Origin: Chryseobacterium sp.
Lineage (GTDB): Bacteria > Bacteroidota > Bacteroidia > Flavobacteriales > Weeksellaceae
Direction of reading: 5' to 3'
Length of the DNA stretch: 64,000 bases
NCBI GenBank assembly: GCA_003248755.1
Contig: QFQW01000006.1
Location: 4,993-68,992 of the forward strand
Shown here: in pieces, positions 5,141 through 48,733 of the stretch
How positions within the stretch are numbered: the stretch's first letter is position 1
Layout of the letters: every line of letters starts with the position of its first letter
Made by a program: the position numbers and the translations under genes
Notes under the pieces: model-generated
Databases searched by the model: none
What the model was told of the DNA's origin: nothing
What the model saw: the letters and a program-made list of their open reading frames with translations, nothing else

Positions 5141-7264
5141 CTATTGAGCTCTGTTTTTTTCCTCAAAATTGACATTTCTGTTGTTGGCTTTCACCTTTTG
5201 ATTTCCAAAATTGTAAGTCACACTGAAAGTCAATCTTCTTGCATCCCAATAATTATCAAAAGATTGTGTATTATCTTTAAAATAAACACTTCCTCTATAA
5301 CCAGATGTTTTGAAGATATCGTTTACGGAAAGATTCATCTGCAAGGCTTTTTCCATTAGACTCATTTTGATACCAGCATTTACACTATATCTGTTTTTGG
5401 TAGAATTGTTTCCTCCTTTGGAAGGTAAAGATTGCCAGTAATTAGCAAAGAAAAAAAATGTTTTTGCCTTATTCAGTTGAAAAGTATTGTTAGCCGAATA
5501 ATAGAATGATTGTCCGTTTCTCGCAATAGCATCGTACTTTGTTATCTGTGTATCACTGTAGCTGAGTGAAGTCGATAAATTGGTTTCCCAAATCTTGACA
5601 AACGTATCAGTATAATTAAGATTAAGACCATAAGTATCCTGATTGTAATAATTATGAAAAGTGCTTACAATACTAACGCCGTCAATGAATGTAATCTGGT
5701 CAAAATTGGCAAGACTTCTTTCATAATATAAACTTGCATTAAACTTACTTTTGAAAATATAATTGAATTCAAAATTATGATTGAATGAAGGCTGAAGACT
5801 TGGATTTCCAGCATAATAACTATTCGGGTTGGAATACCAACGGAACGGGTCCAAAGCTCGGAAGTAGGGTCTGTTTATCCTTCTCGAGTAATTGATGCTG
5901 AATTGATTATTATCATTCGCTTTGTAAGAAATATATGCTGTTGGAAATAACTTCCCATAATTATTTTCTGAACTGGATTGAGTTGTTGGAGAGAAGCCTT
6001 TTGTTTCTGCATATTCATAACGCAAACCAAATTTTGCCGACCATTTTTCTCCGAAATCTTTGCTTGCGCTGATATAGGCTGCATAGTTTTTCTCATCATA
6101 ATTGAAAAGATTACTTCTTTGTGGATCGATGACGTAATTGCTATTAGTAAAATTAAAATAACCTATGTCAGAATTATTGGAAAACTGGCTGTATTTCAAT
6201 CCGGTTTCCAATTGTATCTTTTTGAAATTAAGTGTTAAATCTCCCTGCCCGGAATAGATTTTATAATCAACAGATGAGAGATTTTTCACGATTTGTTCAG
6301 ATTGGTCAGCTAAATCAGTCGTTACAAAATTAACATTAGTCTCCGGAAGATTTCCATAATAATTGGCTCCAAAACTTAACTTATGCTCACCGAATTTTTG
6401 GTCATAATAGAGATTCAGCATTTGAGAAGTTGAGGTTGAGCGGTGTTTGGAATCTGTGTCAATATTTAATGTATTGATGTCATTCGTAAAATAGTGCGAA
6501 ACCGAATTGATATCCATATTAGAATGGCCTTTCGCAAAATCATAGATGAATCCGATATTTGCTTTTTCACTTAATGAGTAATCCAAGCTTGCGTTCACTC
6601 CCAATCCATCGTTCATATCACGTCTTTCATCTCTGCTGATGCTGGAATTTTCTCCAATGATTTTATAATTTTCGACTGACCTTTTCTCACTATCATAACC
6701 TCGAAATTTAACCGAGGATTTTAGTTTCTCATTTTGATAATTGAGACCAAGCGCGCCGCCAAAACCTCCATAAGTGGATTGTTGATAATAGGTATTAGTG
6801 TAACCGCTCCAGCCAAGATTCTGATTTTTTTTCAGAATGATATTGATGATTCCACTGTTTCCCTGAGCTTCATACTTTGCAGGCGGAGTTGTGATAACCT
6901 CGATTTTTGAGATGTTTTCTGAACGAAGATTTTTCAGATAGTTCATCAGTTCCAATCCCGAGAGATTCAGCATTCTGTCGTTGACCATTACGGAAACGCC
7001 ACTTTTACCTGCAATATTAATTAATCCTTGTTCTTCATCAACTTTCAGCAAAGGTGTATTGGCAAGAACCTCTGTTCCAGAACTTCCTTCCGAAACCATC
7101 GAATTCTGAACATTATAAACCAAACGGTCCACTTTTCTTTCGATGATTTTTTTCTTTCCATCCACCGTTACGGTTTCTATGTTTTGAACTTTTACAGTAT
7201 CCTGTGTTTGGGCAAAAGATAATGTACTAAATAATGCTGAGGCAAAAAGTATTGATTTCTTCAT
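5141..7264 (-). CDS. TonB-dependent-receptor-like outer-membrane beta-barrel protein, paralog 2
   Basis: Signal peptide ending SFAQ. Plug block NISKIEVITTPPAKYEAQGNSGIINIILKKN, barrel repeats and a basic C-terminal tail FGNQKVKANNRNVNFEEKNRAQ. Confidence 0.7.
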   Translation of the reverse strand: MKKSILFASALFSTLSFAQTQDTVKVQNIETVTVDGKKKIIERKVDRLVYNVQNSMVSEGSSGTEVLANTPLLKVDEEQGLINIAGKSGVSVMVNDRMLNLSGLELMNYLKNLRSENISKIEVITTPPAKYEAQGNSGIINIILKKNQNLGWSGYTNTYYQQSTYGGFGGALGLNYQNEKLKSSVKFRGYDSEKRSVENYKIIGENSSISRDERRDMNDGLGVNASLDYSLSEKANIGFIYDFAKGHSNMDINSVSHYFTNDINTLNIDTDSKHRSTSTSQMLNLYYDQKFGEHKLSFGANYYGNLPETNVNFVTTDLADQSEQIVKNLSSVDYKIYSGQGDLTLNFKKIQLETGLKYSQFSNNSDIGYFNFTNSNYVIDPQRSNLFNYDEKNYAAYISASKDFGEKWSAKFGLRYEYAETKGFSPTTQSSSENNYGKLFPTAYISYKANDNNQFSINYSRRINRPYFRALDPFRWYSNPNSYYAGNPSLQPSFNHNFEFNYIFKSKFNASLYYERSLANFDQITFIDGVSIVSTFHNYYNQDTYGLNLNYTDTFVKIWETNLSTSLSYSDTQITKYDAIARNGQSFYYSANNTFQLNKAKTFFFFANYWQSLPSKGGNNSTKNRYSVNAGIKMSLMEKALQMNLSVNDIFKTSGYRGSVYFKDNTQSFDNYWDARRLTFSVTYNFGNQKVKANNRNVNFEEKNRAQ

Positions 7265-7328: not shown

Positions 7329-9431
7329 TTAGTTCGCTCTGTCTTTTTCTTCGAAATTAATCTGCTTTTTGTTGATTTGTTTTTTCTTATTTCCGAAAGT
7401 ATAATTCACGCTCAAACGAAAACTTCTTCCATCCCAATAATTATTGAAATGCTGACTGTTATCTCTGAAATACATATCTCCACGGAATCTCTGAGCAAAA
7501 ATATTCGTCACCGTTGCATTGATTTGAAGTTGCTTTTCCATTAGAGAAACCTTGATTCCGGAATTCAGATTGGAAAAATTATGGAAATAAGAATTCACAT
7601 TTTTATAAGGTAAACTTTGGTCATAGTTTAGGAATAGAGAAACCGTTTTTGATTTATTTAAAATAAATGTATTGTTGATAGAATAGCTTACCGAAGTTCC
7701 TTTGGATGTTTCCGCACTGATATTGAAAACTTCTGAGTTTTGATAAGATGCGTTTGCAGAAATAGTCGCTTCCCAGAATTTGAAAAAAGTATCTGTGTAA
7801 GAAACATTAGCTCCATAAAAATTATTGTTATAGTAGTTCTGATAATCTCCATTTTGAGAAATACCATCCAAGTAACCGATTTGCCCAAAAGCATTAGTCA
7901 ATCTAAGATAATAAACGCTTGTCGAAAGCTTGTTGTTATATGTATAACCCAATTCATAATTATTAATGTAAGAAGGCGTCAACAAAGGGTTTCCTGATGA
8001 ATAAGAATATGGATTTTCATACCAGCAGAACGGATTCAAATTGCTCATACTTGGTCTGTTGATTCTTCTGGAATAGGACAAGCTGAAAACATTTTTATCC
8101 TCTTTATAAGAAACGTAAACCGAAGGAAACCATTGCGCATAAGAGAAATTATTCACAGAGCTTTTTACAACTGTATTTTCATATCGGATTCCAGCTTTTG
8201 TTTCCCAATGTTCTCCGAAATTTTTAGCAAAACTTCCGTAAACAGCATAATTCTCCTCGCGATAATTGAAAGTACTGCTTTTTTCATTATCAATAATGAA
8301 TTGATTGTTTTCTAAATCAAAGTATTTCAAATCTGCAGAGTTTCTGAATTGATTGAATTTAACACCGGTTTCAATCGTTCCAAATTTAAATGGCAATTCT
8401 AAGTCGCCCTGAACAGAGAAAATCTGAGGTGTAATTTTTGACAACGTTTTCACATCCTGAATTGTATTTTCAGGAAGAGTCAAAGTCGAGAAATTAACTT
8501 CGGTTTCGTTATTATTTTTGTAAAAATTACCGGCGAAACTCAATTTCTTTCCAAGTGAATCCAACTTCAAATCATAATAAGTACTGAAAGTATGAGTCGG
8601 TGATTTTTCCCTGTGAAAAGTATTGGTCAAAAGATTTTTTTCTGTCAAATCAGGACTGATGTTTCTCGTTGTGTTAAAGATATCCATTCCTGATTTTTCG
8701 TGTCCGAAAATATATTCCATTCCAACTTCTGAGTTTTTATTGATTTTGTAAGAAGCGTTCAAACTCGGTGTCAAATCCTGCCACATATCTTTTCGTGTAG
8801 ACTCACTATAATTCTGTGATTCTCCAAGTATAGTATATCTTTCATTAGAGCGTTTTGCACCATCAATGTAGCTGGTTTTTAAACTTAAACTAAGCTTTTC
8901 GGTTTGGTAATTAAGTGTTCCGTTGGTTGTTCCATTGAAGTAAGTTCTCTGTGTAATGCCAGTGCTGATATTGCCACTAAAACCAAGATTCGGATTTTTT
9001 TTCAGAATAATATTGATGAGCCCGCTGTTTCCTTGCGCTTCATATTTCGAAGGCGGTGTGGTAATCACTTCGATTTTTGAGATGTTTTCTGAACGAATCG
9101 ATTTCAGATAATTCAAAAGAGCAGCTCCTGAGAGATTCAGCATTTTTCCGTTAATCATCACATTTACGCTACTTTTTCCTGTGATAGAAATCGTTCCGAG
9201 ATTCTCATCCACTTTCAACATTGGAACATTGGCAAGAGTTTCGCCGGCATCCATTCCCTGAGATGCGATAGACGCATCTACATTGAAGACCAATCTGTCA
9301 GCTTTTCTCTCCAATAATTTTTTCTTCACAAGAATATTAACCTGTTCGATTTCTTTAAGGCTGTCTTTCTGAGTCTGAGCAAAAGTTGCAGTTGAAAGTA
9401 AGCTGGCGATAAATAGATATTTTAGTTTCAT
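7329..9431 (-). CDS. TonB-dependent-receptor-like outer-membrane beta-barrel protein, paralog 3 (tandem copy of paralog 2)
   Basis: Collinear with 5141-7264 (NISKIEVITTPPSKYEAQGNSGLINIILKKN; same C-terminal FGNKKKQINKKQINFEEKDRAN-type tail). Start moved to the internal ATG at 9431 (MKLKYLFIASLL...), which gives a normal signal peptide. Confidence 0.7.
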   Translation of the reverse strand: MKLKYLFIASLLSTATFAQTQKDSLKEIEQVNILVKKKLLERKADRLVFNVDASIASQGMDAGETLANVPMLKVDENLGTISITGKSSVNVMINGKMLNLSGAALLNYLKSIRSENISKIEVITTPPSKYEAQGNSGLINIILKKNPNLGFSGNISTGITQRTYFNGTTNGTLNYQTEKLSLSLKTSYIDGAKRSNERYTILGESQNYSESTRKDMWQDLTPSLNASYKINKNSEVGMEYIFGHEKSGMDIFNTTRNISPDLTEKNLLTNTFHREKSPTHTFSTYYDLKLDSLGKKLSFAGNFYKNNNETEVNFSTLTLPENTIQDVKTLSKITPQIFSVQGDLELPFKFGTIETGVKFNQFRNSADLKYFDLENNQFIIDNEKSSTFNYREENYAVYGSFAKNFGEHWETKAGIRYENTVVKSSVNNFSYAQWFPSVYVSYKEDKNVFSLSYSRRINRPSMSNLNPFCWYENPYSYSSGNPLLTPSYINNYELGYTYNNKLSTSVYYLRLTNAFGQIGYLDGISQNGDYQNYYNNNFYGANVSYTDTFFKFWEATISANASYQNSEVFNISAETSKGTSVSYSINNTFILNKSKTVSLFLNYDQSLPYKNVNSYFHNFSNLNSGIKVSLMEKQLQINATVTNIFAQRFRGDMYFRDNSQHFNNYWDGRSFRLSVNYTFGNKKKQINKKQINFEEKDRAN

Positions 9432-9608
9432 AAGTTTTATTTTAATCGTTGTAAAATCTTGATGCAAATGTATTTTCAGGACTTCCCTAATGAAATAGCG
9501 TTTAGATTTGATAAGGTTTTAATTCGACCAAACTATTTTCATCGATGAAAAAAGGGTGTTCATAGAATTTGGCGGTTCAGATGTTTTCACTGTCCGTATT
9601 TTTGGAAT

Positions 9609-12048: not shown

Positions 12049-13262
12049 TGCTTTTCTTAATAGATCGCAATTTTTCTCTCTCGTACGAAGAAATTCTGCA
12101 GCATATTGATTCCGAAGACTCTTATATCGATTGCTATATTTATCCTAATCTGAAATCATTTTTTCTTAATTGGATTTTTGCATTAGTTAATCAAAAGAGT
12201 ATTGCTTTGATAGATTCTGACATCTCAGAAAAAGAGATTTTGTCAAACGATTTACAGGTCAATCAATTAATAAAAATTGAGAATCCGGTTAAGATTGGTT
12301 CGATTGAAGAATTAGTTGATTCTATTAATAATTCAACTTCCGAGATTACACTTTTTACTTCCGGAACAACTGGATTTACAAGAAAATTCACTCATCCACT
12401 GAGAAACCTTATTAGAAAAATTAATATTTCTGAAGAGAGAAAAAACGATGTTTGGGGATTTGCTTTTAATCCGACACACGTTGCAGGTGTTCAGGTTTTT
12501 TTTCAGGCTATTTTGAATCGGAATCTTTTGGTTAACGTTTTTCTTGCGCCGAAAGATTTTGTGATTGATGCAATTGACGAATACAAAATTACGAACCTTT
12601 CATCAACTCCAACTTTTTATCGATTACTTTTACCGTTGAAAAAATCATTTGATTCGGTTAAAAAAATTACGATTGGTGGTGAAAAGTCAGATGCCTTTTT
12701 GATTTCTGAAGTTGAGAAAGCTTTTCCAAATGCAAGAATCAACAATGTTTATGGTTCTACGGAAACCGGACCTTTGTTCTCATCTCAAAATGATGAATTT
12801 TTTGTTCAGGATAAATATATTGGTTTTATAAAAGTGGTTGATGACGAATTATATATTCACAAGGATTTATTCGGAAAAACAACTCAACTGAATTTGATTG
12901 ACGGTTTTTATCCAACCGGAGATTTGATAGAATGGATTGATGATGAGCAGAAAAGATTCCGTTTTACATCAAGGAAAAATGAATTAATCAATGTTGGCGG
13001 TTACAAAGTGAATCCTTATGAAGTGGAAGATGAACTGATACAACATTCCAAAATCCGAAATGTAAGAGTCTACGGAAAAGCCAATGCTGTTTTAGGAAAT
13101 ATCATTTGTTGCGAAATTGAACTTCACCCGGATTCTGAACTGAAAGAAGAAGAAGTCAGATTTTTCTTGAACGGAAAAATTCAAAACTTTAAAATTCCTA
13201 GAAAAATAACCTTTGTTGACAAAATAGAGTTAACCAGAACCGGAAAAAAGAAAATAGTATGA
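12048..13262 (+). CDS. AMP-forming adenylating enzyme (acyl-ACP/CoA ligase-like), short N-terminal domain
   Basis: LFTSGTTGFTRKF (A3 / P-loop-like motif), YGSTETG (A5), YPTGDL (A7), NVGGYKVNPYEVE (A8), TRTGKKK (A10). The start overlaps the ACP stop (ATGA-type coupling). Confidence 0.75.
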   Translation: MLFLIDRNFSLSYEEILQHIDSEDSYIDCYIYPNLKSFFLNWIFALVNQKSIALIDSDISEKEILSNDLQVNQLIKIENPVKIGSIEELVDSINNSTSEITLFTSGTTGFTRKFTHPLRNLIRKINISEERKNDVWGFAFNPTHVAGVQVFFQAILNRNLLVNVFLAPKDFVIDAIDEYKITNLSSTPTFYRLLLPLKKSFDSVKKITIGGEKSDAFLISEVEKAFPNARINNVYGSTETGPLFSSQNDEFFVQDKYIGFIKVVDDELYIHKDLFGKTTQLNLIDGFYPTGDLIEWIDDEQKRFRFTSRKNELINVGGYKVNPYEVEDELIQHSKIRNVRVYGKANAVLGNIICCEIELHPDSELKEEEVRFFLNGKIQNFKIPRKITFVDKIELTRTGKKKIV

Positions 13263-15355: not shown

Positions 15356-15745
15356 ATGAAAAGAAATAGAAAGAAATTTTGGATGATTTTTCCTTGCGTG
15401 ATAGGTGCAGTGGGATTATTTATTTGGTTTTTCCAATGGCTTTGGAATATTCTATTACCCGATATTTTGGGAGTGAAAGCAATTAATTATTGGCAATCGG
15501 CTGGAATCTTATTGTTATCGAAAATCTTGTTTGGAGGTTTCAATGGTGCTAAAGAAAAGTTTAAAAGACGAAATGATTTTAATATTGGAATAGGAGATAG
15601 AAGAGAACATTGGAGGCAGAAATTTGAAACTCAATTTTGTGGAAGCGAAGAAGAACGTGAGAAGTTTAAGGAAATGTGGAAGCAAAGATTCGAATCTAAA
15701 TTCTGCAGACCAGAAGAATCTCGGCCAGAAGAAAATAAAATATAA
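15356..15745 (+). CDS. Small membrane protein, possible cognate anti-sigma factor
   Basis: Two predicted TM helices followed by a charged tail with a duplicated (K/R)FExxFCxxEE motif. Lies 11 nt after the ECF sigma gene. Confidence 0.45.
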   Translation: MKRNRKKFWMIFPCVIGAVGLFIWFFQWLWNILLPDILGVKAINYWQSAGILLLSKILFGGFNGAKEKFKRRNDFNIGIGDRREHWRQKFETQFCGSEEEREKFKEMWKQRFESKFCRPEESRPEENKI

Positions 15746-15776
15746 AAAAGTCTCACAAATTTGTGAGACTTTTTTA
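15744..15776. terminator. Bidirectional intrinsic terminator (end of the ECF pair and of the ABC-exporter operon)
   Basis: Perfect palindrome aaaaaagtctcacaa-a-ttgtgagactttttt. Confidence 0.75.
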
Positions 15777-15780
15777 TATT

Positions 15781-17997
15781 TTAACCGCCTAATTCTAATT
15801 GATTCTTTACAAGCTCAAAGTAGCTCCCTTTCATTTTTGTTAATTCTTGATGACTCCCAATTTCTACAATTTTACCATTATCCAGCACTACAATTTTATC
15901 CGCATTTTTAACCGTTGAAAGTCGATGAGCAATAATAATTACTGTTTTCTCTTTGAAAAAAAACTGCAAATTGTCATGAATGATTTTTTCATTTTCTGAA
16001 TCAAGAGCAGATGTAGCTTCATCGAAGAATAAAAATTGCGGATTTTTGTAAACTGCTCTCGCGATAAGAATTCTTTGTTTCTGCCCTCCTGATATGCCAT
16101 TACCGTCTGCTCCAATTTGAGTACTTAATTTAAGAGGAAGTGTACTTATAAAATCATTTAAATTAGCAATCTCTATCGCATAATTTAATTTTTGAAAATT
16201 AATATCTTCTTCACCAACGGCAATGTTTTTTGCAATTGTATCATTAAAAATAAAACCGTCTTGCATTACTGCGCCTATGTTTTTTCTCCATTCTCCCGAA
16301 TGTATATCCATAAAATTGGTTTTTCCTAAAGATATATTTCCCAAATCTGGTTCATAGAATTTTAGAAGTAATTTCATAAGGCTCGTTTTACCACTTCCGC
16401 TTGTTCCTACTATTGCCGTAATTTTATTTTTTGGAATAGTTAAAGAGATATTATCTAAAACTCTCATGTCGTTTCCAAAATAAGAAAACGATATTTCTTT
16501 AAGGTAGATATCTTCGGATTTGACTGCCGGTTCATTCTCTATATTTTTTCTCTCATCTTCGTTTTCTTTTTCGTAAATCTCATTTAGCCTTTCCAAGCTT
16601 ATTTTTGCATCTTGAGAACTTCTGATAAAATCAACTAGTTGGGAAAGCGGAATATTAAGCTGTCCAACAATAAATTGTATAGACAACATCTCTCCTAGTG
16701 TAATTTTATTATTTATAACTAGACTAGCGGAAATAAAAGTGATTAAAATATCTTTCAAATGGTTTAAAAAACTAGATCCTATGTTCTGCCATAGTTCTAC
16801 GTTTTGTAATTTTATTTGAATACGATATATTTTATTTTGAATTTTTTCCCAATCTGTTGTTTTCTGAGATTCAGCTCTGTTCAATTTGATTTCCTGCATT
16901 CCGGAAATAATTTCCATCGTCTTTGACCTTTCTTCTGCTTGTTGTTCAAACCTCATGTAATCTAGAATTTTTCTTTTCTTTGAAAAAAATAATAGCCACA
17001 AAGTGTATAGAATACTTCCAATAAAAAAGATTACAAACACCTGATAATTGTAATACAGCAAAATACTTCCAAACACAATGAAATGAATGAAGGAAAAAAA
17101 GGTATTTAGAGAACTTCCGGTAAGATAGGATTGCACTCTGTAATTATCATTCATCCTCTGTATCAAGTCTCCGGTAATTCTGGAATCGAAGAACGAAATA
17201 GGAAGTCTCATCATTTTTTTTAAAAAGTCAGAAACCAATACAATATTGATTCTATTGCTTAAATGAAGTAAAATTCTTGACCTGATTGCCTCAACGATAA
17301 TTTGTCCTAAAAACAATGCTAATTGAGCAAAAAGAATTGTGTAGATAAAATTTATATTTTTAGGTTTAATACCTTTATCCACAATGTTTTTTGTGAAAAA
17401 TGGAAAGAAAAAAGATATAATATTTTCTATCAGTAGAGCTAAAATAAGATATAGAAGTAGTGTTTTTTGCTTCTTTAGATATTTTATGAAACGAGAATAT
17501 GGATTCGTTTTTTTACAATTAAATCTTTGTTTCCCAAAATCGGAATTGGGTTCTAATAAAAGAATAATACCTTCTTCTGTATTTCCATTTGCAGTTTCAT
17601 TAATCCAATTTTTAATAAAATCACTATGACTATATTTTACTTTTCCCATCGCAGGGTCAGCCACATAGACTCTGTTTGGGTCGATTTTATATAATACCAC
17701 ATAATGGTAGTTTTTCCAAAAAACAATACTTGGCAGAGGTGCCTCCAATAAAGTTTCAAAACTAATTTTTGTTCCAAATGCATCAAACCCAATACTTTCT
17801 GCTGCTTTGGAAATATTATAAAGACTGCTTCCTTCACGGCTAGTTTTAGAAAGATTACGCAAATCCTGAATAGAAAGATGCTTTTTGTAATAAGCACTGA
17901 TGATTTTTAAACAAGTGGGGCCACAGTCTTTTCCATCAAATTGTTTGTAAAAAGGAAAGGGTCTAAGTCTATTTTTTATTCTTGAAATTAATTTCAT
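15781..17997 (-). CDS. Peptidase C39 domain-containing ABC transporter (double-glycine leader-cleaving bacteriocin/RiPP exporter)
   Basis: N-terminal C39 domain with an intact triad context (QFDGKDCGPTC; NYHYVVLY; VADPA). Six-TM ABC membrane domain. Walker A GTSGSGKTS, signature ISGGQKQR, Walker B LFFDEATSALD, H-loop IIIAHRL. Confidence 0.9.
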   Translation of the reverse strand: MKLISRIKNRLRPFPFYKQFDGKDCGPTCLKIISAYYKKHLSIQDLRNLSKTSREGSSLYNISKAAESIGFDAFGTKISFETLLEAPLPSIVFWKNYHYVVLYKIDPNRVYVADPAMGKVKYSHSDFIKNWINETANGNTEEGIILLLEPNSDFGKQRFNCKKTNPYSRFIKYLKKQKTLLLYLILALLIENIISFFFPFFTKNIVDKGIKPKNINFIYTILFAQLALFLGQIIVEAIRSRILLHLSNRINIVLVSDFLKKMMRLPISFFDSRITGDLIQRMNDNYRVQSYLTGSSLNTFFSFIHFIVFGSILLYYNYQVFVIFFIGSILYTLWLLFFSKKRKILDYMRFEQQAEERSKTMEIISGMQEIKLNRAESQKTTDWEKIQNKIYRIQIKLQNVELWQNIGSSFLNHLKDILITFISASLVINNKITLGEMLSIQFIVGQLNIPLSQLVDFIRSSQDAKISLERLNEIYEKENEDERKNIENEPAVKSEDIYLKEISFSYFGNDMRVLDNISLTIPKNKITAIVGTSGSGKTSLMKLLLKFYEPDLGNISLGKTNFMDIHSGEWRKNIGAVMQDGFIFNDTIAKNIAVGEEDINFQKLNYAIEIANLNDFISTLPLKLSTQIGADGNGISGGQKQRILIARAVYKNPQFLFFDEATSALDSENEKIIHDNLQFFFKEKTVIIIAHRLSTVKNADKIVVLDNGKIVEIGSHQELTKMKGSYFELVKNQLELGG

Positions 17998-18856
17998 CTA
18001 ATTCTTTTTGAACATCTTGGATATATATATCATCAAAAACCACTTGGTAATTATCATTATTTTTTATTCCATTTTTTATTAAATCGAATGCCTGATTGAT
18101 ATTGTCTCGATAATCATTAAAACGATTCATTTTTTTAAGAAGGAGTGCTTTGTAGTAATAGTTATCTGCTATTTTTGTAATACTATTTGCGAGATCGTAG
18201 TGTTTTAAAGCTTCCTCATTTTTTCCTAATTTATCCAGACATCTGGCTTTATATAATGCTACTTGGTATGGGAAAAAATTGTTCTCTCGGGTTGCTTCGT
18301 AAGTTTCTTTTATATTACGGTCAAACTCTTGTATCGCTTTTTCATATTGTTTGAGTTGCATATAATTAATCCCTTTCAAATAATGAAAATTATCGCCATT
18401 GGCTACCAAATTTGGCTGATGCTGCATGTGAGTTTCATATAGCTCTAATTTTTCTAAAGATTTTTTATAATCATGGTAAAAAAACAAAAGAACCCAGCCA
18501 TAATAGGCATTTGTAGCTGGATCTATTTTTGAGGCTTCATCCAATTTTTCAATCGCTTGAACCCAATAGCCATTTTTAGTATTTTGTACGGAAGAATGTC
18601 TTATCATCTCAGGTTTTATATTCTTGATATTATGAATTCCGTATTGCATCATTTCTTCGCCAATATCATCCATTCCGAAATAGCTTGACCAATATCCAAT
18701 TTCAAATATCTTTTCAGGAGATTTAATATCGATTGTGTCATTATATTTTTTGGAAATTTGGGCTAATCTATCAACTGCTTTTGGGGAAAGTTTCTGAGCA
18801 TTTGATAGAATATAAATTCCCAAAAAGAATAATACCGTTGCAATTTTTTTTATCAT
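17969..18856 (-). CDS. Secreted/periplasmic TPR-repeat protein
   Basis: Signal peptide (MIKKIATVLFFLGIYILSNAQ). TPR-like helical repeats (YLKGINYMQLKQYEKAIQEFDRNI; ALYKARCLDKLGKNEEALKHYDLA; YYKALLLKKMNRFNDY). The 3' end overlaps the ABC gene start by 29 nt. Confidence 0.6.
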   Translation of the reverse strand: MIKKIATVLFFLGIYILSNAQKLSPKAVDRLAQISKKYNDTIDIKSPEKIFEIGYWSSYFGMDDIGEEMMQYGIHNIKNIKPEMIRHSSVQNTKNGYWVQAIEKLDEASKIDPATNAYYGWVLLFFYHDYKKSLEKLELYETHMQHQPNLVANGDNFHYLKGINYMQLKQYEKAIQEFDRNIKETYEATRENNFFPYQVALYKARCLDKLGKNEEALKHYDLANSITKIADNYYYKALLLKKMNRFNDYRDNINQAFDLIKNGIKNNDNYQVVFDDIYIQDVQKELDEINFKNKK

Positions 18857-18866
18857 TTAATTGATT

Positions 18867-19325
18867 TTATTTGGGTAGAATGTCAGTAATCTCGCCATTT
18901 TGTATTTTAAAAATATAATACTGGTGAAAGTTTTGTATTGCTTGATTTTCTGCAATAGGTTTCCATATTTTCAAAGATTTCACAAGATTCAAAATGTCTT
19001 GTTTTATTTTATCATTTAGTTCACAGTATTTATAATCAAACCCGAAACTTTCGAGAGAGTAATTTCCGGTTTCTCCTTTACAATTGACCCAGAAAGTAAT
19101 ATGCAAGATTCCGGTATTATTTTCTAAATGAGAATAGTCTTCTGCGTGATATTTTGCCTTAAAAATTGATTTTACCGCATAAAAATCTGGAACATAATTT
19201 CCTGAATTTTGCAGATAATAATATGGATATACTTTTTTATCCCCACATAACTGTAGATCTTGGCTTTGTTGACCAAAACTTTTTAAGCTAATTAAAAAGA
19301 ACAAGAAAATTATACTTCTAAACAT
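18867..19325 (-). CDS. Secreted hypothetical protein (152 aa)
   Basis: Signal peptide MFRSIIFLFFLISLKSFGQ. The central GILHITFWVNCKGETGNYSLE block is vaguely TonB-C/beta-sandwich-like. Overlaps the upstream gene by 16 nt and lies 10 nt from the next gene. Confidence 0.5.
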   Translation of the reverse strand: MFRSIIFLFFLISLKSFGQQSQDLQLCGDKKVYPYYYLQNSGNYVPDFYAVKSIFKAKYHAEDYSHLENNTGILHITFWVNCKGETGNYSLESFGFDYKYCELNDKIKQDILNLVKSLKIWKPIAENQAIQNFHQYYIFKIQNGEITDILPK

Positions 19326-20497
19326 TGTGGATTATTTTTCAGAAAAGTAGAAAAATTAAAATTATAAGTTTGATTTTCCATGTTAAAATTTTCTACAATT
19401 GGATAGTATTTGTTATATATTTCAATCCACTTGTCTTTTATTTTGTAAAATATTTCCAATCCAATCTCTGTGAAAATATCTTTTGATCTGTTATTTACAA
19501 ATGAAATATCTCTAGGAATTCTATTAAAAAGCTCTGATACAGGAATAGACGTATAAAACAATTGTAGATCATAATGACATCTTTGAATATAAAGCAATAT
19601 TCTTCCAAGGGCCTCTAATCTTTGTATTTCAGAAAAATCATTGTTTTCCAAAGATGCGTCTAAACATATAAAACTTGCATAATATGTATATAAAGCATGA
19701 AACCAAATCTCAACGCTCCTGTTTTGTTCAGTTTTATATGGCATAGCCAAACTCTGTATTGTTGTATTCTCATCATCTATCAGGAAAAAAAGTTTTTTAT
19801 CAAAAAGCATCGTATACATTAAGACATGACCAGTCTGATGCGCTATGTCATCTACAAAAAAAACTTCGTCATAATTTTCTTGATAAGCATTATAAAAAGA
19901 AATCCCAAGAGCTTTTTTATATGCAAAAGAATTTGTGTTGTATGGTAAAGTATCAAAGACAATGCATTTTGGACAATATTTATCTATCAATACAAAATAT
20001 TCAGGCAGATTTTTTTTGATTAATTGATAAGCTCTTGTTAAATGATGTATATTTTCTTTACTGATTTTGGAAATTTCATACTCATATTCACCAAAACATT
20101 GATCCAGTAATTTGTCTTTGTAAACTAATAGTTCAATATTAGTATCTTCTATAATTGTAGGGTGCTCCGTAATTGTTTCAATATCATTACGCCGGTTATA
20201 TTTGTGGTTGTCTATCCATCCAATGTTTCTGATATATGTTTTTTCAAAATTACTCGTGACTATTTTCTTATTGCCAGTCCAATCTGCATACAGAATAGTT
20301 TCTATCAAATCTGGATCTTTTGTAATATTATCATTGTTGCTAAAATACAGGTTGATAAAAGGATTTGAATAAATAGATTCATCCTCAAAATCTATATGAT
20401 CAAAAATATCTTCATTATTTTTATATAATAGCATTTTTATATTGTCATTCCATTCTTGACGTCCTTGTTCTAATAAAGGAAGAATTGTTGGTAACAT
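19310..20497 (-). CDS. Orphan 395-aa cytoplasmic protein with an H-x3-H motif; candidate peptide-modifying enzyme
   Basis: No signal peptide. DDIAHQTGHVLMY (H220/H224, nt 19826-19840) plus WFHALY (H267). It is the first gene after the precursor peptide. Confidence 0.5.
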   Translation of the reverse strand: MLPTILPLLEQGRQEWNDNIKMLLYKNNEDIFDHIDFEDESIYSNPFINLYFSNNDNITKDPDLIETILYADWTGNKKIVTSNFEKTYIRNIGWIDNHKYNRRNDIETITEHPTIIEDTNIELLVYKDKLLDQCFGEYEYEISKISKENIHHLTRAYQLIKKNLPEYFVLIDKYCPKCIVFDTLPYNTNSFAYKKALGISFYNAYQENYDEVFFVDDIAHQTGHVLMYTMLFDKKLFFLIDDENTTIQSLAMPYKTEQNRSVEIWFHALYTYYASFICLDASLENNDFSEIQRLEALGRILLYIQRCHYDLQLFYTSIPVSELFNRIPRDISFVNNRSKDIFTEIGLEIFYKIKDKWIEIYNKYYPIVENFNMENQTYNFNFSTFLKNNPQCLEV

Positions 20498-20520
20498 TTA
20501 TTATTTGTGTTTTTAGTTTA

Positions 20521-20553
20521 TAAAAAGAGAGAGAGAAATAATCCTCTCTCTCA
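20521..20553 (-). terminator. Intrinsic terminator / attenuator between the precursor peptide and the downstream genes
   Basis: The minus strand reads gagagagag-gattattt-ctctctctc-ttttta. It begins 8 nt after the peptide stop and ends about 24 nt before the next ATG. Confidence 0.6.
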
Positions 20554-20559
20554 AAATTA

Positions 20560-20706
20560 TTATAGTGAAGTAGATGCGCTACAAGAATTATCACCAGGAT
20601 GACAATCTTGAGCTGGAGTTTTTCCTCCTACAACTTGCGTTAATAATGTAGTTACTTCTGTAACGTTCGCTTTCTTTTTGAAAGATTCTAAATTTAATTT
20701 TTTCAT
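20560..20706 (-). CDS. 48-aa double-glycine-leader precursor peptide (bacteriocin/RiPP-like)
   Basis: MKKLNLESFKKKANVTEVTTLLTQVVGG | KTPAQDCHPGDNSCSASTSL. The MKKLxLE start and the hydrophobic -4/-7 positions before GG fit C39 substrates. Lies in the same operon as the C39 ABC exporter. Start set at the internal ATG 20706. Confidence 0.65.
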   Translation of the reverse strand: MKKLNLESFKKKANVTEVTTLLTQVVGGKTPAQDCHPGDNSCSASTSL

Positions 20707-20827
20707 TTTGATAATTTTAAATATTTTGCCTACTCTTTTATGATGCTTTTCGGCGTTCGCATTTTTTGATTGCAATCGTATATAAAAACCTAAAATATTT
20801 GCAACTATTTTTTGGTTTTGACATTCC

Positions 20828-22984
20828 TTATAATGAATTATTTCCTTCTTCGACTCTTCCTTTATCAGATTCCTGTTTGTTGGTTTCTTTACTTTTTTTG
20901 TTGCCGAAAGATTTTGATATAGATAAGGTTATACTTCTTATGTCTCTTCTGTTATTTCTATAAATCTCTCCGATATTAGAGTAATTTACAGTTTTCCAAG
21001 TCAAAAAATTAAAAGGATCTGTTGTTTCTAATCTAATTTTAACCCCTTGTTTATCAAAATTTCTTGATAAACTGAATGTAAATCTATTTGAGGCTTCTGT
21101 CAATTTATAATTAACTAAAGAAAAATTATTGTAAAAAGAAAAATATGCCTCAGAATTAATACCAGTATTCAGGATGTTTTTATAATAAACTTTCAAATCA
21201 AAATTACTAAACGTTGAGTTTGGAACATTCAAATCATTTTTTCTATTAATCTCAGAATTGTCATTAAAAGTAAATGAAGGATTAAAATTCACACTTAATT
21301 TATCCTTAATTATTGATTTATTTATGTTTAGACCTACAAAAAACTGGTAATTATTCCCTCTGTAATTTATTGTTTGGATTACTAGTTGATTATTTTGATA
21401 ATAGTATGAGGATCTCATCACATCATTATTTATCTTGTATGCAAGTGTCAGATTATAATTTTTTCTAAAAGAATAATTTAATCTATAGATTTCTTGTTTA
21501 TAAACCCCTAGGCTTGGGTTTCCTTTATGAATGTAATTATCATTAATGTAATAAATGAAAGGGTTTATTTCGTTTGCATAAGGTCTTATAATTGATTTTT
21601 TATAACTTAAGGCAATTGTGTTTTTGTCATTTGCTTTGTATGATACTATTATGGTAGGGAGCCAATTGTTGTAATCCATTTTATTCACTTCATCAGTTAA
21701 TATTTGAATGCCGTCGATATTTGTAAATTCACTCCTTAATCCAGCTTTAATAGTTAGTTTTTTAAAATATGTTTTGCTAATTGTTGTGTAAATTCCCAAT
21801 ATATTTTCTTTATACTTAAAAATATTGGTCAAATTACTATTTGGAATATATTCCATACCATTCCAAGAATTAACATAATAAGGGCTATGTTGACTTAAAA
21901 AATTATTTTTAAATCCTGTTTCTATAGAGTATCCAGAGTTTCCTAATGATTGAGAATAATCAACCTTAAGAGAATAATTTCTTCTTTCTTCATTAATAGA
22001 ATTATTGTAAGCATTTATAAGTGTGTTGTCATAGGAATTATAATTACCATCTCCATTACTTTTTCTATATACCCAGTCTAAATTAATTTCTAAATTTCGA
22101 TTAGATTTTTTGCCTTGAAATTTGTAAAAAAGATTATTAGAAAATAACACGTTTTTATAATTATCATCTTGATTCGTAAAATATTCGTGGGAATTATCTG
22201 AATAGTTTTTACTGAATAAAAAAGTTTTAGGATTTGAATAATTCAATTCTAAAATCCCGCCAATACTATTTTCAGGATTAATCTCATATTCAAAAGAATT
22301 ATTAATACCTATATAATATTCTTCAGTTTTTCTATCTGTATCAATGTATTGTTCCTCAAGAGCATTATAAATCTTATTAATATTATATTCGTAGGATTTT
22401 CTTCTATCAACCCCGATGTCAAAAGTTGAACTTTGGCTATATCTACTACGATGATAATTAAGATATGCCATAATCTCTTGACTATTTTTCCTTGTCTGTT
22501 TATCTGTAAATGAAATACTACCTTTCCAGCCGTCATCTTCCATTTTCTTCAAAATCAAATCAATCACGGCGCCATCATTTGCATCATATTTTGAAGAAGG
22601 CGTTGTGATAATTTCTATTTTTATCAGATTATCTGCCGGCATAGATTTCAGGTAGCCATACAAATCTTTGCCAAGTAATATAGATTTCCTGCCATTAATA
22701 TAAACTACAGCTGTTTGAAATCCCATTACACTTATACCATTGTCGTCATCTACCATCAATAATGGTGTCTGCTGAAGTACATTCCAAGCATTATTACCAA
22801 TAACCAAACCCGTATTTTCTACATTAAAAACGAACCTGTCAGATTTAGTCTCCAAAACCGGTTTCTTACCAGTAATGACTACTTCTTGGATTTGTTTTTC
22901 CGCAATTATTTTCAAAGAGTCATGCTTTTGGGCAAAAGCATTCCCAATGATAAAAATGAATACTAGATATTTAATCTTTTTCAT
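20828..22984 (-). CDS. TonB-dependent-receptor-like outer-membrane beta-barrel protein, paralog 4
   Basis: Signal peptide and plug block NLIKIEIITTPSSKYDANDGAVIDLILKK. Same architecture and basic C-terminal tail as 5141-7264 and 7329-9431, but with a much more Asn/Ile/Tyr-rich (AT-rich) composition. Confidence 0.7.
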   Translation of the reverse strand: MKKIKYLVFIFIIGNAFAQKHDSLKIIAEKQIQEVVITGKKPVLETKSDRFVFNVENTGLVIGNNAWNVLQQTPLLMVDDDNGISVMGFQTAVVYINGRKSILLGKDLYGYLKSMPADNLIKIEIITTPSSKYDANDGAVIDLILKKMEDDGWKGSISFTDKQTRKNSQEIMAYLNYHRSRYSQSSTFDIGVDRRKSYEYNINKIYNALEEQYIDTDRKTEEYYIGINNSFEYEINPENSIGGILELNYSNPKTFLFSKNYSDNSHEYFTNQDDNYKNVLFSNNLFYKFQGKKSNRNLEINLDWVYRKSNGDGNYNSYDNTLINAYNNSINEERRNYSLKVDYSQSLGNSGYSIETGFKNNFLSQHSPYYVNSWNGMEYIPNSNLTNIFKYKENILGIYTTISKTYFKKLTIKAGLRSEFTNIDGIQILTDEVNKMDYNNWLPTIIVSYKANDKNTIALSYKKSIIRPYANEINPFIYYINDNYIHKGNPSLGVYKQEIYRLNYSFRKNYNLTLAYKINNDVMRSSYYYQNNQLVIQTINYRGNNYQFFVGLNINKSIIKDKLSVNFNPSFTFNDNSEINRKNDLNVPNSTFSNFDLKVYYKNILNTGINSEAYFSFYNNFSLVNYKLTEASNRFTFSLSRNFDKQGVKIRLETTDPFNFLTWKTVNYSNIGEIYRNNRRDIRSITLSISKSFGNKKSKETNKQESDKGRVEEGNNSL

Positions 22985-23078
22985 TCTTTATTTGAATGGG
23001 TTTTTAATTTTATGAATCGAGAATTGGGTAGAATAATTACTAAAGTTTCTAGCAATTATTTATTAGGATTTGAAACCG

Positions 23079-23285
23079 TTATTTTCTTGGAGGAGACTTG
23101 GGATCGTCTTCTAATATAGACTGAGGTATTTCTGAATTTGGCTGTATAGTATCCGAAATAATAGATTTACGATCTTTAGAAGTAGGGTAATAATTTGATT
23201 GAATTTCTTCAGAGCTGAAACTTTCGTTTCTACATCCTATTAGAATTAGAAATAATAGTAATAAAATTACTTTTGATATTTTCAT
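23079..23285 (-). CDS. Small lipoprotein (68 aa)
   Basis: MKISKVILLLLFLILIGC lipobox followed by a Ser/Pro/Asp-rich mature part. Lies directly downstream of a good TAnnTTTG promoter match. Confidence 0.45.
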   Translation of the reverse strand: MKISKVILLLLFLILIGCRNESFSSEEIQSNYYPTSKDRKSIISDTIQPNSEIPQSILEDDPKSPPRK

Positions 23286-23301
23286 CGGTTTGTATTTTTG
23301 C

Positions 23302-23332
23302 CAAAACTATATAAGTAATAAGTTCAATCCAA
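23302..23332 (-). promoter_or_regulatory. Candidate promoter for the minus-strand lipoprotein / OM-receptor / peptide operon
   Basis: On the minus strand: TTG (23332-23330), 20-nt spacer, then TAGTTTTG (23309-23302), a perfect TAnnTTTG match. It lies 17 nt upstream of ATG 23285. No equally good box occurs directly upstream of 22984 or 20706. Confidence 0.35.
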
Positions 23333-23462
23333 ATTATAAATTTTCAAAACAGTTATTAACTTAAAAAAAATAAATACTTGCAAAGAAAATATTGATACAT
23401 ACAAAAAAATTATTTGTAAAAAAATAAATCGACATTTGTAATTAGTTGATTATAAATGCTAA

Positions 23463-23493
23463 TTGGCATTGACTGGAATTTTCCTTAAATTTG
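23463..23493 (+). promoter_or_regulatory. Candidate promoter of the TPR/AraC regulator gene
   Basis: TTG (23463-23465), 20-nt spacer, then TAAATTTG (23486-23493), 17 nt upstream of ATG 23511. Confidence 0.35.
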
Positions 23494-23510
23494 TTTTTCT
23501 AAACACACAA

Positions 23511-25247
23511 ATGAAATATTTCTTATCAATTTTGTTGATTTTTTCAATGTTTTTTAATGGTTTTGCTAATGATAGCCTGCTGATTTCTTATTCAAATATT
23601 CAAAAGGAAATCCAAAAATTGGACAAAGAACCTAAAAAACAATTCAAATGGATTCTCCTACTGATTGAAAAAGCTAAAAAAGAGAATAATTTAGAAAAAC
23701 TTAACCAAGGCTATTCCTTCGCCAGTACTTATACCCGAGGTAATATTCAAATGAAATATGGTGATAGTCTCTTAAGTACTGCTTTACAGATCAATAATCC
23801 AGATATTATTGGAGATTGCTATCTATCAAAGGGTATGATTTATACAAATGAAGAAAAGTATCCTTTGGCATTGGATTATTTTATGAAAGGTTATAATTAT
23901 ATTAAAATTAATAACGACGAATATTTAATTCATAACGCAGAATATCAGATTGCTCAAATAAAAATTTATTTAGGAGAATATCAAGAAGCAAGAAAAATCC
24001 TAAAAAGAACCCTGTCTTTTTTTAGAAAGAATCATACAAAAATCAAGAACACAGATTATGCATTGTATTACATATATTCATTGATAAGTTATATAGATGC
24101 TAATAGTAAGTTAGGGAATTTCTCCGAAAATGTCGCATTGATAAAAGAGGGTTTGCACTTTACCCGCAACACAAATTATAACAGTTATTATTCCTATTTT
24201 GTATCGTTGATAGGTACAGATTTCTATTATCAAAAAAAATATAATTTAGCTATTGAAAAACTTAACTCTGCATTAGAATTAAGCAATGATAACTGGAAGC
24301 ATTTGACAGAGAATTATTATTTGGGGCTGTCCTACTGGTACAAAGGTGACAAAGAATTTGCGTTGCCATATTTAAAAAAATTGGACGCAGAATATAACTC
24401 CAACGGAAAAATAGATCCACAGTTTCGCCCCGCTTTCGAAGCTTTACTAAATTATTATCGTGATAAAGATGATATTAAAAAACAGCTTAATTATATAAAT
24501 AAACTAATAAAATTAGATAAGATCTACGAGAAAGATTATAAGTACTTATATGCAGCTTTAAAAAAAGAATATGATACTGAAAATTTAAAAAAGCAAAAAG
24601 CATTCTTGGAAAAATCGTTAATTAATGAGAAAGATAATAATTTTTTGATAAAATTTATTTTAGTAATCGTTTCAGGAGTCCTTTCTTATATAGTATATTC
24701 CTTATATCAAAGACATAAATATTACAAAATACTTTATCTTCAATTTATAAGTAATGAAAATAAGCAAAACCTTACGGAAGAAGATAAATATATTATTCCC
24801 TATGTTTCGGATAATATTGATATTAAAGTTTCAAATCACATTGCAGAGAATTATGATTCGTTGGATTTGAATCCAAATCTTGTGAAGGATATGCTTTTGT
24901 ATTTGTCGGATTTTGAAGCAAAAAAAGGGTTTCTTGATAAGGACATTACCCTAACTAAAATGGCTTCACAATTTGGTACCAATGTTTCTTACTTATCCAA
25001 AGTTATTAATTTTTACAAACAAGAAAATTTCCTTAGTTATATTAATACACTTAGATTGAATTATACTCTTGAATTATGGCAAAAAGATCCTCTCACTCGA
25101 TACTATAGAATTAGTGAAATTTCTAATATGGTAGGATTTAAAACAGTTCAAAGCTTTGCCAAAAACTTTAGAGAGAAATATAAAATATCTCCCAAATATT
25201 TTTTGACAAATCTTAATGAAAATAAAAAAGTAGATAAAATGAGTTAG
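23511..25247 (+). CDS. Transmembrane one-component regulator: N-terminal signal/anchor, TPR-like sensor region, TM helix, C-terminal AraC-type HTH
   Basis: MKYFLSILLIFSMFFNGFA signal. TPR-like repeats. TM helix FLIKFILVIVSGVLSYIVYSLY (about nt 24643-24708). AraC HTH (LTKMASQFGTNVSYLSKVIN...EISNMVGFKTVQSFAKNFREKYKISP). Confidence 0.75.
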   Translation: MKYFLSILLIFSMFFNGFANDSLLISYSNIQKEIQKLDKEPKKQFKWILLLIEKAKKENNLEKLNQGYSFASTYTRGNIQMKYGDSLLSTALQINNPDIIGDCYLSKGMIYTNEEKYPLALDYFMKGYNYIKINNDEYLIHNAEYQIAQIKIYLGEYQEARKILKRTLSFFRKNHTKIKNTDYALYYIYSLISYIDANSKLGNFSENVALIKEGLHFTRNTNYNSYYSYFVSLIGTDFYYQKKYNLAIEKLNSALELSNDNWKHLTENYYLGLSYWYKGDKEFALPYLKKLDAEYNSNGKIDPQFRPAFEALLNYYRDKDDIKKQLNYINKLIKLDKIYEKDYKYLYAALKKEYDTENLKKQKAFLEKSLINEKDNNFLIKFILVIVSGVLSYIVYSLYQRHKYYKILYLQFISNENKQNLTEEDKYIIPYVSDNIDIKVSNHIAENYDSLDLNPNLVKDMLLYLSDFEAKKGFLDKDITLTKMASQFGTNVSYLSKVINFYKQENFLSYINTLRLNYTLELWQKDPLTRYYRISEISNMVGFKTVQSFAKNFREKYKISPKYFLTNLNENKKVDKMS

Positions 25248-48538: not shown

Positions 48539-48660
48539 TTCTTAATATCGATAGTTTCCAAAGATAAAATTTTTTTTGAAATGGTAAATAGAGACGAGAT
48601 TCTAGACGAAAATATGAGGTTTTTCTTTTGACAAAACTAAAATTTTATGACAAATCCCAT

Positions 48661-48733
48661 AGCCCCGATTGTAGTGGAAATCCTTTTTCTTTTTTGAAAA
48701 GAAAAAGATTGCAACGGAAAGCGGGATTAAGCT
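48661..48733 (-). repeat. REP-like ~75-bp element, copy 2 (inverted relative to 14610-14686)
   Basis: The reverse complement agcttaatcccgctttccgttgcaatctttttcttttcaaaaaagaaaaaggatttccactacaatcggggct aligns with copy 1 along its length. It sits 10 nt 3' of the LRR gene stop, in the same gene-relative orientation as copy 1. Confidence 0.6.

Follow-up and report, generated by a model that had tools for sequence, protein, structure and literature searches.

A family of double-glycine-leader peptides with an invariant Cys-His dipeptide and an oxygenase-fold partner enzyme, probably modified and exported, in Bacteroidota

The stretch of DNA analysed here (the window) covers 64,000 nucleotides of contig QFQW01000006.1 from a Chryseobacterium sp. 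assembly (GCA_003248755.1; positions 4,993 to 68,992 of the forward strand), and this text concerns a 48-residue peptide gene on its minus strand together with the operon that the gene heads. The operon runs in the order precursor, 395-aa enzyme, 152-aa protein, TPR protein and C39-ABC exporter, all on the minus strand, with genes that overlap or abut. We consider it probable, with good confidence, that this open reading frame (ORF) is the structural gene of an enzyme-modified and exported ribosomally synthesised and post-translationally modified peptide (RiPP) and that it belongs to a large, uncharacterised family in Bacteroidota. The genes and sites on which this proposal is built are the following (window coordinates):

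20706..20560, minus strand: precursor peptide gene, 48 aa plus stop codon; leader 20706..20623 (MKKLNLESFKKKANVTEVTTLLTQVVGG), core 20622..20563 (KTPAQDCHPGDNSCSASTSL), stop codon 20562..20560
20599..20604, minus strand: codons TGT CAT of Cys7-His8, the family-invariant dipeptide and putative modification site
19310..20497, minus strand: 395-aa putative modifying enzyme, divergent alpha-ketoglutarate (alpha-KG)-HExxH fold, motif DDIAHQTGH (H220, Q221, H224), with R260, H267, E295 and R299 conserved
18867..19325, minus strand: 152-aa protein with a signal-like N-terminus
17969..18856, minus strand: 295-aa TPR protein with a signal-like N-terminus, a core accessory gene
15781..17997, minus strand: 738-aa C39-peptidase/ABC exporter of the peptidase-containing ABC transporter (PCAT) type, with Peptidase_C39 (E 1.6e-33), ABC_membrane and ABC_tran domains and matches to TIGR01193 and TIGR03796

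Translated from the minus strand, window positions 20560-20775 read LQSKNANAEKHHKRVGKIFKIIK-MKKLNLESFKKKANVTEVTTLLTQVVGGKTPAQDCHPGDNSCSASTSL*. The ORF track shows the precursor solely as a 71-aa ORF with a TTG start (20775..20560), of which the precursor forms the last 48 codons. Judged from the sequence, the true start is the ATG at 20706, because all homologues begin at the equivalent Met (M(K/N)KLSL...) and because a non-coding RNA motif, RF02914 (20763..20727), occupies part of the 23 codons by which the longer ORF is extended; both observations agree with the preliminary description of this DNA, which had read the real ORF as 48 aa hidden within a spurious extension. When a hidden Markov model (HMM) built from other-clade precursors only, leaving out the window and its closest relatives (loci L001-L004), was run against the 1780 six-frame segments of the window, the precursor was found at E 8.5e-12 and the runner-up at E 0.44. 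Compared with the orthologues in L001 and L002, the precursor gene differs mainly in the third bases of its codons, and between L001 and L002 themselves 5 of 5 changes fall at third positions, every one of them synonymous. Chance can be dismissed as the origin of this ORF. In the protein collection, the identical peptide is recorded solely from a Logan assembly and the Epilithonimonas orthologue is annotated 'hypothetical protein'; the 90%-identity cluster of the 48-aa peptide also includes a 383-aa 'ClpP protease subunit', probably through an artefact of the clustering. The window peptide itself gave nothing useful in Pfam and NCBIfam scans up to E 10.

The leader is 28 aa long and ends in ...TQVVGG at residue 28, as expected of C39 substrates, whose leaders run to about 15-30 aa and close with Gly-Gly (or GA/GS). 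The classical double-glycine (GG) leader consensus has hydrophobic residues at -4 and -7, and also at -12 and -15; the window leader carries V(-4) and L(-7), with Glu at -12 and Asn at -15, and the family consensus reads ELLxxIxGG. The core is 20 aa long, has C7 and C14 in a CX6C spacing and S13, S15, S17, T18 and S19 in its tail, and is acidic and hydrophilic (isoelectric point 5.2, GRAVY -0.85) as well as rich in Cys, His and Asp. The leader length, V(-4) and L(-7), the CX6C pair and the Ser/Thr-rich tail had been described before and are all correct on translation; the strand, the modifying enzyme (20497..19310), the upstream RNA motif and the downstream hairpin are added here. The further suggestion that a GG-leader precursor is handled here by the neighbouring C39 transporter is supported as well: located by its motifs, the N-terminal C39 domain of the exporter keeps the catalytic Q19, C25, H98 and D114.

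How the peptide relates to a wider family was seen in 52 related Bacteroidota loci, collected via the enzyme, whose six-frame translations were searched with the precursor HMM. Homologous small ORFs were found in 50 of the 52 (76 matches), mostly directly upstream of the enzyme gene and commonly in tandem arrays of 2-7. A precursor profile search of the database returned 547 proteins, none informatively named ('hypothetical'), and the statistics given here for cores (Cys counts and position of the Cys-His, or CH, dipeptide) are those of the 120 listed among these 547 matches. The only invariant columns in an alignment of 34 precursors are G27 (-2), C35 and H36, while G28 is at least 90% conserved. 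Cys-His occurs in 120 of the 120 listed matches, and also in the strong matches of the loci; it lies exactly 4 residues past GG in 109 of them, so usually at core residues 5-6. Ahead of the Cys stands one of D, S, A, G and E (Asp in 59 of 120), and past the His the cores are hypervariable. A leader conserved across Flavobacteriia in front of a hypervariable core, the pattern that the preliminary description had proposed to look for, was therefore found in the loci and in the database search. NCBIfam scans of the 34 precursors gave noise only, and there is no curated family for them.

The same comparison changes how the core itself should be read. Exactly one Cys is present in 97 of the 120 listed cores; a second Cys is confined to the window's clade (the window and L001-L004), where it is always present, in spacings of CX4C, CX5C and CX6C. 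Outside this clade neither the Ser/Thr tail nor the HPGDN turn is conserved. Hence CX6C, to which the earlier account had drawn attention, does exist in the window peptide but is ruled out as the family signature, since the second Cys is clade-specific, its spacing is variable and most cores are single-Cys; at the level of aligned sequences the signature is a GG leader followed by xxxx-Cys-His, the conserved positions being G(-2), C7 and H8 in window numbering. A lanthipeptide reading is ruled out too, because the operon has no Lan enzyme, the Ser/Thr tail is clade-limited and most cores have one Cys. The lanthipeptide-like look noticed earlier is thus superficial, while the remark that came with it, that no dehydratase or cyclase is present, stands: none of LanB+LanC, LanM, LanKC or LanL was matched among the eight genes at 15356-25247, nor were such enzymes found among the conserved neighbour families of the related loci. 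Locus L038 (6081-6561, plus strand) shows a different arrangement, with three tandem GG-leader peptides that lack Cys-His (...GGQSSSIIIEDILGF) just upstream of a CH-type precursor; these may be unmodified peptides that share the exporter.

The gene next to the precursor encodes a 395-aa protein with neither a signal peptide nor a membrane segment. It has 243 database relatives, or 726 representative clusters when grouped at 50% identity, and the named organisms that carry relatives are Bacteroidota throughout. An AlphaFold2 model of the protein (pLDDT 88, pTM 0.90), compared by Foldseek with the PDB, gave two significant targets only: 8s5f ('HExxH domain of ChlBHExxH, a novel alpha-ketoglutarate dependent oxygenase'; E 5e-8 to 8e-8, prob 1.0, TM 0.54-0.66) and 22ob ('SjiH-Ni'; E 1.4e-5), the literature search having found no publication on SjiH. 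Botulinum-toxin zincins (BoNT/E light chain) come next and are non-significant (E > 0.3, TM ~0.23). Enzymes of the alpha-KG-HExxH type tailor RiPPs, depend on non-haem iron and alpha-KG, have a zincin-like fold and bind iron via HExxH; on leader-bearing RiPP precursors they hydroxylate the beta position of His, Asp, Phe, Gln or Pro, and one pair also performs oxidative backbone cleavage (PMC12636437, PMC13060819). The motif of the family described here is [DE][DE]hxHQxGH, with HQTGH in the window, and HQxxH is found in 259 of 265 proteins, meaning that Gln takes the place of Glu in 98%; HExxH is kept in two members (P0164 and P0252), by which the HQxxH clade grades, in sequence terms, into the canonical motif. 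Among 246 full-length members, conservation reaches at least 93% at each of H220, Q221, H224, R260, H267, T271, E295 and R299, the two motif His (H220 and H224) at 98-99%. We therefore view the enzyme, on its modelled structure, as a likely divergent sister clade of the alpha-KG-HExxH oxygenases, within the superfamily by fold and outside it by HMM and by the eponymous motif.

Peptide and enzyme belong together across the family. When all ORFs of the loci were clustered (53 loci, window included), the enzyme was present in 53, the C39-ABC exporter in 39, the secreted TPR protein in 38, HlyD in 30, the 152-aa protein in 17, a CPBP/Rce1-like protein in 12, the AraC-TPR regulator in 10, an Xre-type helix-turn-helix (HTH) protein in 8 and the outer-membrane protein OMP_b-brl_3 in 7. 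The co-occurrence holds both ways: enzyme-seeded loci carry precursors, and peptide-seeded loci (Mariniflexile, Tenacibaculum maritimum and a Flavobacterium haoranii metagenome-assembled genome, MAG) carry the enzyme, the TPR protein and the C39-ABC exporter in 3 of 3. In particular, six loci (L033, L036, L040, L042, L045 and L046) contain CHxxxCH precursors with two CH motifs (for example GDCHTDNCH), and in all six two diverged enzyme paralogs flank that precursor, one enzyme per site. Of the indirect evidence for action of the enzyme at CH, this match between two CH motifs and two paralogs, read from gene content, is the strongest. The F. haoranii MAG locus (L055, 6987-9265) appears to have its enzyme gene in several short ORFs and partial copies, and its C39 and ABC parts are separate; either the cluster is perhaps in decay there, or the assembly may contain frameshifts.

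Taken as a pathway, the 48-aa precursor would be translated from an mRNA that carries the DUF805b RNA motif in its leader, while a hairpin past the stop codon probably keeps precursor transcripts above the level of read-through into the enzyme genes. The 395-aa HQxGH enzyme, by its ChlB-HExxH fold a putative non-haem-iron and probably alpha-KG-dependent oxygenase, would bind the conserved leader in the cytoplasm and oxidise Cys7-His8 just beyond the cleavage site; we infer this course as the most likely one from the conserved leader and the cytoplasmic location of the enzyme. The transporter's C39 domain would then cut after Gly-Gly, and the 20-residue product would be exported. Having named C7 and H8 among the potential modification targets was apt in this respect, since the next gene encodes an enzyme of the alpha-KG-HExxH fold.

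As to the reaction, our leading guess, to which we give about an even chance, is one that consumes the thiol, either a Cys-His thioether cross-link or another oxidation of the Cys. We lean this way because the Cys is invariant and because most exported cores would otherwise hold one unpaired thiol; the number of Cys is even in 105 of the 120 listed cores if the CH cysteine is consumed and in 15 of 120 if it is kept. More tentatively, and somewhat against the balance of our own expectation, the HQxxH clade could perform an iron-dependent oxidative coupling of adjacent Cys and His that would be new to RiPPs, or some other thiol-consuming rearrangement. Such a coupling might be regarded as a peptide-embedded analogue of the C-S bond of ovothiol and ergothioneine: the OvoA/EgtB sulfoxide synthases join Cys sulfur to His imidazole and, like the oxidative enzymes that depend on multinuclear non-haem iron (MNIOs; MbnB, and ChrH of Chryseobacterium), are iron enzymes that act on a Cys thiol. 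The likeness is one of analogy only, the imagined reaction using an adjacent Cys and His within a peptide, and no match to MNIO/DUF692, DinB or FGE-sulfatase appeared in any sequence or fold search of this analysis. CoiH, which forms a sulfoxide, proved to be unrelated.

Several points weigh against an oxygenase that consumes the thiol. The window's own clade always has a second Cys, and this pattern of residues is easier to reconcile with a free Cys7 in a disulfide than with loss of its thiol; it could also be that the invariant Cys serves enzyme recognition or product function only. On the side of the enzyme, no Pfam or NCBIfam model matched the 395-aa protein, even up to E 10; TIGR04267 was reached by 2 of 22 relatives, at E 0.018, and was unmatched by 8 further members, and the two that retain HExxH do not reach it; and the enzyme-family profile had 0 matches among PDB sequences. 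Homology to alpha-KG-HExxH enzymes, as suggested by the model, rests on the fold and a partial motif. The change from Glu to Gln in HExxH means that cofactor use could differ from that of the characterised enzymes, and the roles that conservation would assign to residues (H220 and H224 as iron ligands, H267 or E295 as a third ligand, the Arg residues for alpha-KG) are guesses. For Fe(II)- and alpha-KG-dependent oxidation of the precursor, the conserved R260, H267, E295 and R299 are the sole indirect support.

A plain peptide beta-hydroxylase resembling ChlB-HExxH is our second choice, which we hold to be possible, if rather unlikely. It would hydroxylate His8, and possibly the acidic residue before the Cys, and leave Cys7 untouched, with the free thiol going into a C7-C14 disulfide in the window's clade or acting as a metal ligand with the hydroxy-His. 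The characterised alpha-KG-HExxH enzymes hydroxylate residues that include His and Asp (PMC12636437, PMC13060819), the top structural match is that very hydroxylase, ChlB-HExxH, an Asp precedes the Cys in about half of the listed cores (59 of 120, as given above) and the second Cys is always present in the window's clade. Plain hydroxylation nevertheless leaves unexplained a Cys that is as invariant as the His in ~200 precursors, it would have 97 of the 120 listed cores exported with a single unpaired thiol, and the variable pre-Cys residue (D, S, A, G, E) means that hydroxylation of Asp is not the family-defining step.

Far less probable, in our judgement, is that the peptide is not modified at all, being a class II bacteriocin or pheromone with a GG leader, and that the 395-aa protein has an accessory, immunity or chaperone role. 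Both the leader and the C39-ABC/HlyD/CPBP setting are typical of unmodified class II bacteriocins, locus L038 also has tandem GG-leader peptides without CH, and the catalytic Glu of the zincin motif is absent; yet a protein without signal peptide or membrane segment has an oxygenase fold, its near-invariant residues (HQxGH, H267, E295, R299) suit metal and alpha-KG binding, it always adjoins CH precursors with a copy number that follows the number of CH motifs, and a dipeptide that stays invariant, always equally far from the cleavage site, while the rest of the core is hypervariable bears the mark of a modification site. Least probable of all is a zincin-type metallopeptidase that hydrolyses the precursor, for example around Cys-His. 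The zincin-like fold with weak BoNT/E light chain matches just below the oxygenases would allow it, and the related PflC hydrolyses under some conditions (PMC12636437), but a hydrolytic protease role is unlikely because the general-base Glu is lost, replaced by Gln in 98% of members, which is the classic inactivating change in zincins; the BoNT/E mutant E212Q is in fact among the Foldseek matches. HQxxH in ACE3 and in CLCA proteins is treated as a substituted catalytic site (PMC1925091, PMC3650047). The structural zincin matches are, moreover, non-significant, and the transporter already provides a dedicated leader protease.

Set beside known systems, the putative tailoring enzyme shares much with the alpha-KG-HExxH oxygenases (TIGR04267 / IPR026337: ChlB-HExxH/ChlH, BpmH, PflC/PosC, PesO), namely the overall fold (8s5f, E 5e-8), two His on one helix (HxxxH), a conserved downstream His/Glu and Arg, and a stand-alone cytoplasmic enzyme beside a leader-bearing precursor. 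It differs from them in that the window enzyme lacks a significant match to the family model and has Gln for Glu family-wide, in its substrate motif, which is Cys-His 5-9 residues past the GG site, in that no radical-SAM or MNIO partner is present here, and in a family found in Bacteroidota only. The literature examined reports neither Cys chemistry nor a CH motif for alpha-KG-HExxH enzymes. The peptide, for its part, resembles GG-leader peptides exported by PCATs (class II bacteriocins and some lanthipeptides) in its GG at -2/-1 and hydrophobic -4/-7, in a transporter with catalytic Cys/His/Asp, in the HlyD and CPBP immunity-type genes of many related loci and in its hypervariable core. An invariant dipeptide of modification type and an obligatory oxygenase-fold partner set it apart from these, as does the window's clade, in which HlyD and CPBP are missing and an OMP_b-brl_3 barrel is found instead.

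In most clades the product looks like a bacteriocin, with long tails, many of them amphipathic (for example DCHGFWGQAHKAAVEIGKAIL...), and with CPBP immunity-type and HlyD genes in the clusters. For the window's clade a metal-binding, signalling or antimicrobial role is conceivable; if the proposed modification and export are right, its short Cys/His/Asp product and the outer-membrane barrel could make up a system around a secreted metal-binding peptide.

No description of the CH-motif precursor family or of the HQxxH clade was found in the literature examined, and neither has a curated model. The components are familiar; the substrate motif and the enzyme clade are not, and the chemistry probably is not either. 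With over 500 precursors, all 'hypothetical', and enzyme clusters that number in the hundreds at 50% identity, this is a large peptide natural-product family without a curated model, in a phylum whose RiPPs have been little explored; if the tentative reading of a reaction new to RiPPs is true, it would also be a RiPP class of its own, widespread in Bacteroidota. The alpha-KG-HExxH oxygenase fold, itself a recent discovery, is extended to a sequence-divergent clade with Gln for Glu. An invariant Cys-His substrate dipeptide is without precedent for this enzyme family in the literature examined, so that new chemistry is directly testable here, and the pairing of a fixed putative modification site with hypervariable tails suggests a scaffold for natural diversification.

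Two RNA features flank the precursor gene:

20727..20763, minus strand: DUF805b RNA motif (Rfam RF02914), a cis-regulatory candidate, 45.3 bits against a gathering threshold of 35.6, E 1e-11; ends 20 nt before the ATG
20527..20552, minus strand: terminator-like or attenuator hairpin, 11-bp stem GAGAGAGAGGA/TCTCTCTCTC followed by TTTTTAT, 8 nt past the precursor stop codon and ahead of the enzyme gene

The first is one of two Rfam matches in the 64-kb window, the second being a Flavo-1 RNA (RF01705) at 48657-48732 on the plus strand (84.3 bits), of which another copy lies in L009 (12479-12559). Elements in related loci were located by a bipartite pattern and Rfam scans, a fuzzy search with 3 mismatches being too noisy. 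DUF805b is found 16-24 nt upstream of CH-precursor starts in about 23 of 56 loci, from several genera, and is absent from 21 others. Sites in related loci include:

L001, 6659-6693
L014, 6570-6602
L017, 4027-4059
L019, 3430-3465
L036, 8126-8160
L042, 8329-8363
L043, 6698-6737
L053, 5948-5980

Across loci the P1 stem shows compensatory changes, and three loop bases (nCC/nCT) covary with three bases past the GAGTA box (GGn/AGn), a covariation that suggests a candidate pseudoknot. The motif takes its name from its position upstream of DUF805-domain genes. The window element resembles it in scoring above the gathering threshold and in having the P1 stem, and departs from what the name implies in that the first downstream gene, in the window as in the related loci, is a small GG-leader peptide gene and not one for a DUF805 protein; no DUF805 match was seen among the genes scanned, which did not include a systematic DUF805 search. 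The orphan Rfam motif thereby gains a concrete genetic context in unannotated small peptide genes and, on the more tentative reading, could be a dedicated regulatory leader for small GG-leader peptide genes. In L043 it also stands ahead of another Cys-rich GG-leader peptide (MKKLSFFKSKEIKSNLIANNGGCFQTETTCEAQCGE...) and of a lipoprotein-like gene (12889-12928 and 933-969); therefore the RNA is not limited to CH-type precursors.

Three terminator-like sites were found against 0.6 expected, and the hairpin at 20527..20552 folds with -18 kcal/mol (z -4.9). In most related loci, too, folding shows a comparably strong hairpin past the end of the precursor gene; the folds were used for this because the automatic terminator flag was too crude on related loci (4 of 38). 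The window hairpin may act as an attenuator that keeps precursor mRNA in excess.

The operon has two further neighbours with counterparts in related loci:

20828..22984, minus strand: 718-aa outer-membrane beta-barrel OMP_b-brl_3 (PF14905, E 7.6e-54), directly upstream of the precursor
23463..25247, plus strand: divergent TPR and AraC-type HTH regulator (HTH_18 and TPR matches), with a homologue beside the cluster in 10 loci

OMP_b-brl_3 adjoins the precursor in L001-L004, L042 and L046, an adjacency that is conserved in the window's clade, where the cluster contains neither HlyD nor CPBP. We do not call the barrel a TonB-dependent receptor, its N-terminal Plug domain being unconfirmed by Pfam. 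Elsewhere in the window, three tandem ORFs of about 710 aa lie on the minus strand (2938-5085, 5141-7264 and 7329-9467); the last of these clusters with the precursor-adjacent barrel, and therefore the genome carries several paralogs of that outer-membrane protein. By its domains and position, the AraC-TPR protein is a candidate regulator of the cluster. The 152-aa protein gave nothing useful in Pfam and NCBIfam scans up to E 10, and its structure model (pLDDT 53) is too poor for comparison. Finally, some related loci have additional genes between enzyme and transporter, which encode a metallo-beta-lactamase-fold protein in four (L012 6157-7578, L021, L035 and L050), an aspartyl-protease/PDZ protein in three (L009 5770-6975, L015 and L016) and an amidohydrolase in one (L053 8906-10228); these are possible extra tailoring or processing steps.

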